Source: a bacterium (GTDB taxonomy: Bacteria; Patescibacteriota; Patescibacteriia; Magasanikbacterales; GWA2-37-8). Taken from it: a DNA stretch of 40,196 nt. The notes under the pieces are model-generated. The model saw only the letters and a list, made by a program, of their open reading frames with translations, was not told where the DNA came from and made no database searches. Position 1 is the first letter of the stretch, and every line of letters starts with the position of its first letter. A program made the position numbers and the translations under genes. The stretch spans positions 1 to 40,196 of the forward strand of contig JAKANM010000002.1 of NCBI GenBank assembly GCA_021812425.1, in the 5' to 3' direction. Below, piece after piece: positions 1,676 to 8,205 of this stretch.

Positions 1676-1692
1676 AGAATAATATCTTTCAG

Positions 1693-1724
1693 ATCCCTCA
1701 TCAGCAATGGTGGGGGATTTTTTT
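1693..1724 (+). terminator. Rho-independent terminator
   Basis: The stem pairs ATCCCTCATC (1693-1702) with GGTGGGGGAT (1709-1718), including G-U pairs. The loop is AGCAAT and a T-tract follows at 1719-1724. Confidence 0.6.
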
Positions 1725-1727
1725 ATC

Positions 1728-1756
1728 TTGAAATATTTAGGTTTTCATGATAGATT
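1728..1756 (+). promoter_or_regulatory. Promoter: TTGAAA, 17 nt, TGaTAGATT (extended -10)
   Basis: TTGAAA at 1728-1733, TG at 1748-1749, TAGATT at 1751-1756. The predicted TSS at about 1763-1765 coincides with the start of the repeated leader element. Confidence 0.45.
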
Positions 1757-1764
1757 GTAGCAGT

Positions 1765-1844
1765 TATATGGGCTTCGCCGCATATATTCTCATTCGTTCG
1801 GAAATGAAAATAAATTTTCATTTCACTCACTTATTTCGAATATG
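1765..1844 (+). repeat. 80-nt leader element, copy A, ending on the mnmA ATG
   Basis: It matches 7301-7380 at 68 of 80 positions without gaps. Hairpin 1 spans 1765-1786. Hairpin 2 is GAAATGAAAA-TAAA-TTTTCATTTC at 1801-1824. The last 20 nt (ACTCACTTATTTCGnnTATG, differing only at the two n positions) run into the start codon. Confidence 0.75.
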
Positions 1845-2936
1845 AACTCTCGAAAAAACAAAATTAAAGTACTTGTCGCCCTTTCCGGAGGAGTCGATTC
1901 ATCGGTTGCCGCCGCGCTTTTGGTTGCGTCGAAAAAGTACGAGGTAACGGGCGCGTTCATGATAAATTACGATGAGAAAAATCCGGACGGCGTGAATTGC
2001 TATCTGCATGATTACCGCGACGCGGTCCGAGTAGCCGCTAAACTTGGCATTCCGATTTTGAAGCTTGATTTCAAAAAAGAATATTCAGAAAAAGTATTGT
2101 CTTATATGTATTCTGAATACGAGAAGGGACGCACGCCGAACCCGGACGTGATGTGTAATTCGTTTATAAAATTTGGAAGCTGGCTCGATAAAGCGAAAGA
2201 GCTAGAGTTTGATTATCTGGCGACGGGACATTATGCTGTGACAAAAAATGGCAAGCTGTTGGTTTCACGGGACGAAAATAAGGACCAAACCTACTTTTTG
2301 CATCAGCTAAATAGAAATCAACTGGCGCACAGTATGTTTCCAATAGGGGAATACACTAAGCCCGAGGTTCGAAAGTTAGCGGAGAAATTTGATTTGCCAA
2401 CCGCGGACAAAGAAGAAAGTATGGGGATCTGTTTTATCGGCGAGGTTCCGATAAAGGAATTTTTACAGAAACGTATTGCGCTCAAACCGGGAAATATATT
2501 GTTTCAGGGCAAGGTAATCGGCGTCCATGACGGTTTGTCATTTTATACAATCGGCGAACGCCACCTCGGGGTTAAGACCAATGACAATCAACCGCTTTAT
2601 GTCCTTGATAAAAACATAAAATCAAACGAACTGATTGTCGGCCATGAGCACGACCCGATGCTGTATAAGAAAGAGTCTGAAATCGAAAAAGTGAATTGGA
2701 TAAGTGGACAAACGCTGAAATTTCCATTAAAATGTGAAGTACGATTGCGACATCGGCAGCCGCTTCAAAAGTGCGTTGTGATGATGGTTGACGGTCGAGT
2801 AATAGTGAAATTTGGTACAGATCAAAGAGCAGTAACACCAGGACAATTCGCGGTGTTTTACTTGCCTCGCCGAAGCCACAAAGGGGCGAAGGCAGGTAAA
2901 AATGGGGAATGTTTAGGCGGGGGAGTGATAAAATAA
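1842..2936 (+). CDS. mnmA: tRNA 2-thiouridine(34) synthase MnmA
   Basis: PP-loop motif VALSGGVDSSVAA and a full-length MnmA-like layout ending in CLGGGVI. A short basic insertion sits near the C-terminus. Confidence 0.9.
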   Translation: MNSRKNKIKVLVALSGGVDSSVAAALLVASKKYEVTGAFMINYDEKNPDGVNCYLHDYRDAVRVAAKLGIPILKLDFKKEYSEKVLSYMYSEYEKGRTPNPDVMCNSFIKFGSWLDKAKELEFDYLATGHYAVTKNGKLLVSRDENKDQTYFLHQLNRNQLAHSMFPIGEYTKPEVRKLAEKFDLPTADKEESMGICFIGEVPIKEFLQKRIALKPGNILFQGKVIGVHDGLSFYTIGERHLGVKTNDNQPLYVLDKNIKSNELIVGHEHDPMLYKKESEIEKVNWISGQTLKFPLKCEVRLRHRQPLQKCVVMMVDGRVIVKFGTDQRAVTPGQFAVFYLPRRSHKGAKAGKNGECLGGGVIK

Positions 2937-5531: not shown

Positions 5532-5556
5532 AAACTCATCAATAAATAGAATTTGT

Positions 5557-5628
5557 ATCAGCCGGTGCGGTGGAGCTCGATGAAAGATTGAGCGACGATA
5601 TCGCGGCAGTGGTTGATATTTTTTCTTT
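5557..5628 (+). terminator. Long imperfect hairpin plus T-tract between infA and rpmJ (terminator or attenuator)
   Basis: The arm at 5557-5573 pairs with 5601-5617 over about 17 positions, with 2 mismatches and several G-U pairs. TTTTTTCTTT follows from 5619. Confidence 0.4.
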
Positions 5629-5646: not shown

Positions 5647-5760
5647 ATGAAAGTACGAGCCTCGGTAAAGAAAATTTGTCAAAAATGCAAAATTGTCCGC
5701 CGCAACAGATCCTTGCGCGTGATTTGTGAAAGCAAAAAACATAAACAGCGCCAAGGTTAA
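5647..5760 (+). CDS. rpmJ: 50S ribosomal protein L36
   Basis: This gene is not in the ORF track. Hand translation gives [37 protein letters not shown] (37 aa), with the CxxC...CxxxH L36 zinc motif and the conserved position between infA and rpsM. Confidence 0.9.
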
Positions 5761-7284: not shown

Positions 7285-7300
7285 TTTTAACGAATTTTTA

Positions 7301-7380
7301 TATATGAGCTTTGCCACATATAAACTCATTCGCTCGTAAATAAAAATAAATTTTTATTTAACTCACTTATTTCGTTTATG
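7301..7380 (+). repeat. 80-nt leader element, copy B, ending on the rpoA ATG
   Basis: It matches 1765-1844 at 68 of 80 positions without gaps. Hairpin 2 is TAAATAAAAA-TAAA-TTTTTATTTA at 7337-7360. It carries two compensatory pair changes relative to copy A. Confidence 0.75.
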
Positions 7381-8205
7381 GAGAACTATCTGTTACCCTC
7401 CAAGGTGGAATTCGAGGCCAGCGCTCAGCCGCATACCGCTATGGTAGTCATTACCCCGTGTTATCACGGCTATGGCACCACTCTCGGCAATGCTTTGCGC
7501 CGCGTTTTGCTTTCTTCTTTGCCTGGTTCGGCTGTCGAATATTTCAAGGTCAAAGGTGTACAGCATGAATTTAGCACGATCGAAGGCGTCAAAGAAGACG
7601 TTGTCGAGATTATGCTTAACTTGAAACAGCTCGCGGTTAAAATTTTTACCGATGAAATGGTAGTTTTGAACATTTCGAAGAAAGGACCTGGTCCGGTTAC
7701 TGCCGGAGACATCGAGCCAAACAGCAATGTCGAGATTATCAACAAAGATTTAGTAATCTGCAATCTTACCAAAAATCGTACTTTAGACATGGAAATTGCC
7801 GTCGGCCGCGGCCGCGGTTATCGTCCAGTCGAGGAGAAAGATCGCCAACACCAGGATCTGGGGACCGTTCTTACTGATTCGGTTTACACTCCTGTCAAAG
7901 ATGTTGGTTACCATGTTGAGTATACCCGCGTTGGCGACATCACAAACTACGAGAAATTGAATATGCTGATTGAAACGAATGGCACTATTTCTCCGCGCGA
8001 GGCGCTTTCGCAGGCCACACAAATCCTGATGGATCACTTTATGATCGTAGCAAACGGTTCGGCAAGTGGCGCCGAGACGAAGAGCGAGGAAGTCGTATCT
8101 GCGGTAGAAGAAGTTGCTGTTTCTTCGAAGGTTGAAACTGCCAAAGATGAAACAAAGGCTGAAAAACCGAAACGCAAAACAAAAAAGAAGAAGGGAGACG
8201 AATAA
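7378..8205 (+). CDS. rpoA: DNA-directed RNA polymerase alpha subunit: N-terminal domain plus a low-complexity tail, with no recognisable alpha-CTD
   Basis: TLGNALRRVLLSSLPGSAV and GRGRGY are alpha-NTD motifs. After about aa 222 only a 50-aa S/A/E/K-rich tail remains. rplQ starts 10 nt downstream. Confidence 0.9.
   Translation: MENYLLPSKVEFEASAQPHTAMVVITPCYHGYGTTLGNALRRVLLSSLPGSAVEYFKVKGVQHEFSTIEGVKEDVVEIMLNLKQLAVKIFTDEMVVLNISKKGPGPVTAGDIEPNSNVEIINKDLVICNLTKNRTLDMEIAVGRGRGYRPVEEKDRQHQDLGTVLTDSVYTPVKDVGYHVEYTRVGDITNYEKLNMLIETNGTISPREALSQATQILMDHFMIVANGSASGAETKSEEVVSAVEEVAVSSKVETAKDETKAEKPKRKTKKKKGDE

Follow-up and report, generated by a model that had tools for sequence, protein, structure and literature searches.

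A multi-copy, insertion-polymorphic repeat of Patescibacteria that mostly ends on a start codon and keeps its pairing by compensatory changes

Patescibacteria have tiny, tightly packed genomes. To our knowledge they have not been grown in pure culture, and their translation start and gene regulation are largely unknown. The DNA analyzed here, referred to below as the window, is a stretch of 40,196 nt (contig JAKANM010000002.1, assembly GCA_021812425.1) whose nearest named relatives are labeled Magasanikbacteria. It holds two copies of an 80-nt element, one directly 5' of mnmA (copy A, 1765-1844) and the other in the rpsD-rpoA spacer (copy B, 7301-7380). We show that this element belongs to a multi-copy, insertion-polymorphic family in which pairing is kept by compensatory changes and most copies end, in sense orientation, on the ATG of a gene. 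In a repeat search of the window, the two copies were returned as an ungapped direct repeat identical at 68 of 80 positions (85%), the same figure as in an earlier note on this DNA (the original prediction); the other non-tandem two-copy repeats reached at most 35 nt at ~70% identity. That note also had both copies ending on the ATG of a gene, and this agrees with the long open reading frames (ORFs) that begin there, with their Pfam domains, and with the N-termini of MnmA and RpoA from relatives, to which the N-termini encoded in the window could be aligned.

The 12 differences between the copies are located at element positions 7, 12, 16, 23, 24, 33, 37, 42, 55, 60, 75 and 76. Two compensatory pairs in the hairpin at positions 37-60 (hairpin 2) had been recognized originally and proved exact: from copy A to copy B, G37-C60 becomes U37-A60 and G42-C55 becomes A42-U55. 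Two further pairs had been overlooked, 23/76 and 24/75, which read UU/AA in copy A and AA/UU in copy B, so that paired changes make up 8 of the 12 differences. The predicted fold of copy A has a free energy of -17.3 kcal/mol (z = -3.8) and that of copy B -8.0 kcal/mol (z = -1.55). With the covariance model of the family described below, copy A scored 94.8 bits and copy B 89.4 bits; because the next match in the window scored only 11 bits, the window holds exactly two copies of the element.

Related genomes were searched with a 25-nt pattern, CATATANNCTYATTCGYTCGNAAAT, taken from the part conserved in five copies; it placed no constraint on either hairpin top, on the variable pairs or on the 3' end. 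The pattern gave 80 exact matches in 78 stretches from 22 species-representative assemblies, where by our own estimate chance would give ~0.3 matches; the genome MFRA01 alone held 17. A covariance model built from 60 copies found 109 copies in 671 kb of fetched loci at E<=1e-8. Thus, the earlier view of the element as a dispersed module is borne out by both searches. Its length is usually 80-90 nt, rising to ~120 nt when hairpin 2 is long. Carriers of the pattern are nearly all Magasanikbacteria/Patescibacteria, with a few doubtful labels: several carrier assemblies (L018, L020, L021, L028, L029, L033 and others; L numbers denote fetched loci) are labeled 'uncultured Gammaproteobacteria' or 'Candidatus Udaeobacter'. 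These labels are probably wrong, because the sampled regions hold an element that is otherwise restricted to Patescibacteria. Viral contigs, searched as a check for phage origin, gave no matches.

No named RNA family matches the element, and none had been recognized originally. Rfam 15 gave no match in the window at the gathering score, and at E<=10 nothing lay over either copy except an RsaJ match on the opposite strand (14.9 bits; gathering score 100). In five related loci searched at E<=1, nothing overlapped the copies. We found no prior description of the element in the literature and, as far as could be found, no earlier description of such exact start-codon placement for bacterial repeats.

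From 5' to 3', the element is composed of hairpin 1 (strand S1, TATAKG; a GC-rich top; strand S2, CATATA), a conserved unpaired strand, CTCATTCGYTCG, hairpin 2, and a second conserved unpaired strand, CTCACTCATTTCG, which is followed by WW, TAT and either G or A (Table 1). Hairpin 2 spans 11-98 nt, and its subfamilies are common to several genomes. The lower stem of hairpin 1, S1:S2, is paired in 84% of cells (60 copies). The original account of the structure, correct as to the covariation of hairpin 2, had overlooked a second, long-range covarying helix that includes the start codon. This closing helix pairs CATATAWWC with GWWTATG, the latter strand being S3, and consists of 7 bp between positions 19-25 (UAUAWWC) and 74-80 (GWWUAUG).

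In a MAFFT alignment (A3), the closing helix is 95% paired and has two covarying pairs (UA 35 / AU 17 and UA 36 / AU 17), and hairpin 2 reaches 90% pairing, 6 of its 10 pairs having changed on both sides. The observed covariation score was reached by 0 of 500 shuffles, and controls with slid partners brought pairing down to 35-50%. When the 109 copies were aligned to the model (A4), the closing helix was 93.7% paired, all 10 pairs of hairpin 2 were doubly changed with 90.6% of cells paired, and double changes were found at 14 of the 17 pairs; no shuffle among 500 reached any of five measures. The covariation of hairpin 2, originally proposed from two copies, is therefore borne out in both the 60- and the 109-copy sets. 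The W-W pair types of the closing helix differ inside single hairpin-2 subfamilies, so their exchanges do not represent one inherited event, and a subfamily ending GAAAATA carries ATATTTTC in S2, the whole closing helix having changed jointly. Bases 19-22 are needed both for the closing helix and for the foot of hairpin 1, so that full formation of one excludes that of the other.

Table 1. Coordinates of the two element copies, their parts and the adjoining features in the window
Feature	Positions	Strand	Basis
Copy A of the element, whole spacer from promoter-like site to mnmA	1765..1844	+	80-nt repeat; covariance-model match 1762-1844, 94.8 bits
Copy A hairpin 1: S1 TATATG, top GGC-UUC-GCC, S2 CATATA	1765..1786	+	Minimum free energy and centroid structure
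Copy A closing helix, 5' strand TATATTC, overlapping the 3' foot of hairpin 1	1783..1789	+	Alignment columns 28-34 with 88-94
Copy A conserved pyrimidine-rich strand TCATTCGTTCG, unpaired	1790..1800	+	Invariant or near-invariant columns, alignments A3 and A4
Copy A hairpin 2, 10 bp, A/U-rich; sequence and length vary across the family	1801..1824	+	Predicted fold; covariation
Copy A second conserved pyrimidine-rich strand ACTCACTTATTTC, unpaired	1825..1837	+	Alignments A3 and A4
Copy A closing helix, 3' strand GAATATG; last 3 bases are the mnmA start codon	1838..1844	+	ORF; Pfam; covariation
Copy B of the element, filling the rpsD-rpoA spacer	7301..7380	+	80-nt repeat; covariance-model match 7298-7380, 89.4 bits
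Copy B hairpin 1, weaker, with A.C/A internal loop	7301..7322	+	Sequence reading; predicted fold
Copy B closing helix, 5' strand TATAAAC	7319..7325	+	Compensatory with 7374-7380
Copy B hairpin 2	7337..7360	+	Predicted fold; covariation
Copy B closing helix, 3' strand GTTTATG; last 3 bases are the rpoA start codon	7374..7380	+	ORF; Pfam; alignment with relatives
mnmA (tRNA 2-thiouridylase; tRNA_Me_trans), gene 3' of copy A	1842..2936	+	Pfam PF03054, PF20259, PF20258
rpoA, gene 3' of copy B	7378..8205	+	Pfam PF01000, PF01193 (N-terminal domains)
Promoter-like site TTGAAA-17-TAGATT 5' of copy A	1728..1756	+	9/12 matches, TG extension
Terminator-like hairpin and T-run of the upstream zinc-finger gene	1691..1720	+	Sequence scan

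The fixed end position of the element reads ATG in 61 of 78 pattern copies and ATA in 15; for the model copies, the counts are 74 of 109 (68%) and 27. What had been noted for the two window copies, an end on the start codon, is thus the rule in the family. The ATG-ended copies nearly all open a long ORF in sense orientation, and copies that escape the pattern likewise end in ATG and a long ORF. In the 20 downstream proteins that were scanned, Pfam domains set in between residues 1 and 26 (17/20 within the first 8), so that these N-termini are genuine. The 20 proteins are L4, L5, L9, L24, RpoA, TrmD, Adk, enolase, GlpX and LDH/MDH, ATP synthase a and gamma, SecE, UvrA, TopA and a UvrD-type helicase, as well as a pseudouridine synthase, TatD, a GT2 glycosyltransferase and a response regulator. 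The genes checked are mostly housekeeping genes that are unrelated to each other and form no coherent regulon, so that the lack of a functional relationship first noticed for mnmA and rpoA extends across many functions.

Most ATA copies open no ORF of their own. Some make up the first part of tandem doublets in which it is the second unit that ends on ATG, some are found 2-13 nt 5' of a start codon (for example that of infB, a GTG), and others face a convergent gene. Among the 74 ATG-fused copies, 50 come after a co-directional gene, 31 of these within 26 nt of its stop codon, and no -10 box was found at a constant distance 5' of the fused copies. The usual setting is therefore an intercistronic spacer that is nearly all element, and copy A, behind a promoter-like site of its own, represents the less common one. 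The original prediction placed the transcription start of copy A on the first bases of the element; the promoter-like site does exist there, but such an arrangement is not general, since the copies are mostly intercistronic. A leader peptide was considered and rejected: a 25-codon ORF beginning at position 4 of copy A is cut by stop codons in copy B and L007, has no ATG in L012 and is missing in other copies.

The element contains no Shine-Dalgarno motif, as had been stated. As a feature specific to the element, however, this was rejected, because the whole window is nearly devoid of such motifs: only 4 of its 39 genes have a Shine-Dalgarno-like motif, and the base 5' of ATG is usually T. The lack is therefore a trait of the genome. 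In related loci, -10-like hexamers are enriched 0-9 nt before ATGs, with no clean peak at 5-7 nt. The data suggest that initiation in the lineage is independent of Shine-Dalgarno pairing and perhaps partly leaderless. The anti-Shine-Dalgarno sequence CCUCC is present in the 16S rRNA of a host relative. Pairing of the conserved strands with this 16S rRNA was judged to be at chance level (best 8-9 bp, with several G.U); the single match near its 3' end lies in the presumed helix 45, assigned by analogy with E. coli.

Conservation at orthologous positions in relatives, which would be looked for in a fixed leader, was not found. Instead, orthologous sites are filled or empty among close relatives and different genes are affected in each species, and the element is therefore insertion-polymorphic and behaves as mobile DNA, a possibility absent from the original prediction. 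The flanking genes of the copies are core operon genes in conserved order. The rpsD-rpoA spacer, filled by the element in the window, is empty in seven relatives, among them L007, L010, L012, L092, L093 and L094 (18-27 nt); L092 is the closest relative, with 92% RpoA identity. The junction reads TTTTAACGTATTTTATATATT-ATG in L092 and TTTTAACGAATTTTTATATAT-G...CGTTTATG in the window. Where the window has copies at mnmA and rpoA, L007 has them at rplQ and in the mnmA-alaS spacer, and L012 at rpmJ. The mnmA-alaS copy of L007 is directly 5' of alaS, and L093 has a copy 5' of an inserted 134-aa ORF between mnmA and alaS. In the window, the mnmA-alaS spacer has a length of 3 nt. The rpoA-rplQ site is filled only in L007 and the rpmJ site in L012 and L026; the syntenic regions of L010 and L094 contain no copy, and none was seen in the 4.3-kb contig L092. 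A screen with N-termini by tblastn gave 49 empty versus 7 filled orthologous comparisons. The rpsD-rpoA site has been filled in three lineages by three different hairpin-2 subfamilies. A metagenome scan for rpsD-rpoA alleles found no contig beyond the one already known.

At rpoA, rplQ, rpmJ and rplX, the junctions are compatible with an insertion at TAT|G that left the element flanked by TAT on either side, and all of them lie in AT repeats. As a check for a longer, 5-nt WWTAT duplication, the two bases 5' of S1 were compared with W75/W76 and matched in 48 of 98 cases versus 38.8 expected (p ~0.02). Empty sites carry no scars. At mnmA, the distance from the promoter to the element (its 5' TAT) in the window equals that from the promoter to the ATG at the empty L094 site, which suggests that mnmA was a nearly leaderless gene that gained an 80-nt leader. 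One orthologous pair of copies is 92% identical, as compared to 62-82% for the adjacent gene.

Tandem doublets occur at L021:6010-6168, L049:3848-4003, L064:5564-5717 and L028:2798-2989. They consist of a full unit ending TATA, a 5-nt linker (TTAAG or TTAAA) and a unit without the GC top of hairpin 1, which ends on ATA in L028 and on the ATG of a gene at the other three loci. At L035:5822-5976, two tail-to-tail copies overlap by 14 nt, and it looks as if one copy had inserted at CAT inside the conserved tail of the other. The 'empty' rplD start of L030 reads ...TATAATTTTGAAAAATCATTTCGTTTATG, an end like the tail of the element, and may be the remnant of an internally deleted copy.

Several other features of these loci were recorded. 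RpoA of the window has only 275 aa, and Pfam finds its N-terminal domains alone, with no alpha C-terminal domain detected. The 104-aa gene at 1361-1675 contains a 102-nt internal direct repeat of 76% identity (1382-1483 / 1550-1651), the units of which are two treble-clef zinc-finger (zf_Tbcl_2) units. A 37-codon rpmJ (MKVRASVKK...) at 5647-5760 is below the size limit of the ORF list. Just 3' of infA (5553-5622), a ~70-nt hairpin with a U-run, almost identical in L010, L012 and L093, has 26 predicted pairs, 2 of them compensatory, and matches nothing in Rfam; it may represent a small RNA or, ahead of rpmJ, a conserved terminator or attenuator. In a metagenome-assembled genome (MAG) of related Magasanikbacteria, a group I intron (69.9 bits) was found within the 23S rRNA gene (L019:6133-6331).

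The reading that we favor, and to which we give about an even chance, is that of a non-autonomous mobile element of Magasanikbacteria-type Patescibacteria that lands at TAT|G and serves as leader or intercistronic spacer. According to this model, the unit would land at the TAT|G of a start codon, leaving TAT on both sides, and its own end would rebuild the ATG. The unit would then be part of the transcript of the gene, making up the entire leader in the case of copy A and the intercistronic spacer in that of copy B. Because essential genes depend on its terminal AUG, the element would have to permit initiation without a Shine-Dalgarno motif. In a lineage that lacks this motif, insertion may be tolerated if hairpins 1 and 2 fold away and leave a G-poor, unstructured tail of 19 nt before the AUG. 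Access to the AUG might be set by competition between S1:S2, which would form hairpin 1 and leave the AUG free, and S2:S3, which would form the closing helix with the AUG paired. At the base of hairpin 2, the two conserved strands rich in pyrimidines would probably provide the contact for a trans-acting factor, which could be part of the ribosome (S1, for example), a regulator that binds RNA, or the mobilizing enzyme.

Several observations weigh against this model. The ensemble probability of the closing helix calculated with ViennaRNA is only ~9%. In the helices of the 109 copies, with the start-codon pair set aside, sense-strand A.C mismatches (41) exceed G.U (15), which is unusual for sense-strand RNA, where the reverse is commonly seen. 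In copies not fused to a gene, the conserved strands are about as well preserved as in fused copies, so their preservation need not stem from serving the gene; faster decay of the non-fused copies was looked for, and the difference from the fused ones was not significant. The proposed TAT duplication is read from 4-5 junctions that could be aligned, all within AT repeats, and these junctions fit equally well an element that ends in TATG and makes no duplication. Terminal inverted repeats do not extend beyond TATA, the ends being TATAKGGGC... and ...TTTCGWWTATG. No transposase or other recurrent ORF was found near copies in 8-20 kb loci of 9 genomes, and a second orthologous pair of copies diverges faster than its gene.

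The A.C excess, the weak predicted closing helix and the conserved non-fused copies keep alive a reading in which the structure belongs to the DNA, the element moving as single-stranded DNA like palindrome-associated transposable elements (PATEs) derived from IS200/IS605, repetitive extragenic palindromes (REPs) or integron attC sites. Here S2 would act as a guide inside the element by pairing with S1 at one end and S3 at the other, the conserved strands beside hairpin 2 would be recognized by an enzyme, and effects on the mRNA would be incidental. S1 and S3 are indeed near-identical direct repeats that are both complementary to S2, and all three have changed jointly in the AAAATA subfamily. 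A.C on the sense strand equals G.T on the other strand, ATA copies away from genes are equally conserved, scarless empty sites would fit precise excision, and the copy lying over the tail of another suggests insertion at CAT there. However, the surroundings of the copies showed no transposase, of the Y1/HUH type or otherwise, and hairpin 2 varies freely (11-98 nt) yet stays paired, which is typical of RNA stems. A 3-nt target alone would leave the strict sense orientation and the exact start-codon placement unexplained, and antiparallel Watson-Crick pairing over 7 bp is unlike the guide contacts of IS608. We consider DNA-level structure possible, though rather unlikely. A host cis-regulatory leader, either a riboswitch or a protein-bound translational operator that defines a regulon, appears distinctly unlikely. 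The internal loop would bind a ligand or protein, the closing helix would be stabilized and the AUG hidden, and the mobility, merely apparent, would reflect gain and loss of an old regulator. This would account for a covarying closing helix around a conserved internal loop with a variable distal hairpin, for the alternative hairpin that overlaps the 5' strand of that helix, for sense-oriented copies directly at start codons, and for many growth-related targets (rplD, rplE, rplX, rplI, rplQ, rpmJ, rpoA, secE, adk, eno, atpB, atpG, trmD and mnmA). It sits poorly with orthologous sites that are empty in the closest relatives, with genes that differ from species to species, and with targets that also include glycosyltransferases, membrane proteins, UvrA, TopA and PcrA. 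About 1/4 of the copies are away from a start codon and equally conserved, tandem and overlapping copies occur, and both loop strands are pyrimidine-rich, which would be unusual for a ligand pocket.

The remaining explanations concern the 5' end of the message, or deny a family altogether. The element might remove the leader by cleavage just 5' of the AUG, by itself or through an RNase, yielding a leaderless mRNA, or couple translation by placing the upstream stop codon beside the downstream AUG for re-initiation, so that an insertion would be phenotypically silent. The AUG does lie at the 3' edge of a conserved helix, S1 and S3 are juxtaposed by the fold, and an upstream stop codon is found <=26 nt from S1 in 31 of the 74 fused copies. 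Moreover, the lineage lacks Shine-Dalgarno motifs, -10-like boxes occur near many ATGs, and size and pattern of conservation resemble those of small ribozymes. Nevertheless, no Rfam ribozyme family matched and the spacing from -10 to ATG has no clean leaderless peak, and we regard such a device as very unlikely. A mobile promoter, in which the repeat would carry its own -35 and -10 and drive the downstream gene, is highly improbable. Near-identical upstream regions before non-homologous genes are a signature of reused promoters (PMC3575422), and S2 reads TATAWW; yet most copies are intercistronic, directly after a co-directional gene, a promoter-like site already exists outside copy A on its 5' side, and a promoter scan found no such site inside copy A or copy B. 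A start 3' of TATAWW would drop S2 from the RNA, although S2 covaries with S3, and the 11-98 nt of hairpin 2 allow no fixed -35/-10 spacing across it. Finally, chance similarity could appeal to the A/T-rich sequence and to copy B, which folds no better than many shuffles. It is refuted by the ungapped 68/80 identity above a background of <=35 nt, by the 80 pattern matches and by scores of 89-95 bits, and we give it next to no probability.

The repeat replaces the whole initiation region down to the AUG before core genes such as rpoA, ribosomal protein genes, adk and eno without disabling them, and would thus represent a portable initiation region found in nature that can do without a Shine-Dalgarno motif. 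Placement exactly at start codons points either to strong selection or to target choice of a novel type. Going further, the element could be a selfish one that targets start codons and neutralizes its own insertion at the RNA level, by means of a replacement AUG and its fold, with a cut-off leader or stop-to-AUG re-initiation. We consider this proposal improbable; if true, it would make the element the leader-region counterpart of a self-splicing intron and, in an uncultivated phylum, a portable module for initiation independent of Shine-Dalgarno pairing. On the practical side, contigs of related MAGs break off inside copies, the repeat breaks assemblies of these genomes, and it can be used to mark very recent strain divergence.

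Correia elements (CREE) of Neisseria and the BOX, RUP and ERIC repeats are small, non-coding, multi-copy repeats that are co-transcribed and form stable RNA folds that can affect expression of the neighbor gene. The element resembles them in being small, non-coding, multi-copy, insertion-polymorphic and gene-adjoining. Correia elements have 26-bp terminal inverted repeats and a TA duplication, those of the BOX type are built from modular boxes, and both occur in either orientation without being fixed at start codons. In contrast, inverted repeats of the element do not go beyond TATA, conservation is highest in its unpaired strands, and 68% of its copies are in sense orientation and end on ATG. 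With miniature inverted-repeat transposable elements it shares small size and lack of coding capacity (80-120 nt), multiple copies (109) and polymorphism at orthologous sites, but not terminal inverted repeats of ~10 bp or more, since its ends have only TATA/TAT in common. REPs are GC-rich palindromes of 20-40 nt located mostly at gene 3' ends or between convergent genes, often as inverted pairs, whereas 74 of the 109 element copies adjoin a start codon on its 5' side, in sense orientation, and pairs are tandem or divergent. PATEs derived from IS200/IS605 insert 3' of a fixed tetra- or pentanucleotide and make no duplication. The absence of terminal inverted repeats, the end hairpins, the internal bases that pair with the ends and the short fixed target are reminiscent of PATEs and of REPs and REPINs (reviewed in PMC8049555). 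Unlike in those systems, no Y1 transposase or RAYT was seen near the copies, the pairing is an ordinary antiparallel helix of 7 bp, and the internal hairpin is highly variable.

Promoter reuse in prokaryotes gives non-homologous genes upstream regions that are almost identical, both in one genome and across genomes (PMC3575422); in the element no promoter could be placed, and the shared part is a structured leader with a start codon. Similar to translational riboswitches and RNA thermometers such as fourU and ROSE, it has a helix over the initiation region, a competing hairpin, covarying helices in a structured 5' untranslated region and a conserved loop. Unlike them, it has an incoherent gene set, no conserved orthologous position, copies away from genes, and no evident ligand or temperature logic. 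The Rickettsia palindromic elements offer the parallel of a selfish repeat that survives in a compact genome through insertion compatible with gene expression; those elements, however, are inserted in frame inside coding sequences and translated, while the one described here lies immediately 5' and supplies the start codon. Integron attC sites have an RYYYAAC ... GTTRRRY core at the 3' end of the cassette, in contrast to a closing helix that reads TATAWWC/GWWTATG. Because it lacks terminal inverted repeats, a location at gene 3' ends, an internal promoter, a regulon and an Rfam match, the element stands apart from its nearest known kinds. We file it as a small interspersed repeat, set apart by its start-codon end and by RNA-like covariation around conserved unpaired strands.

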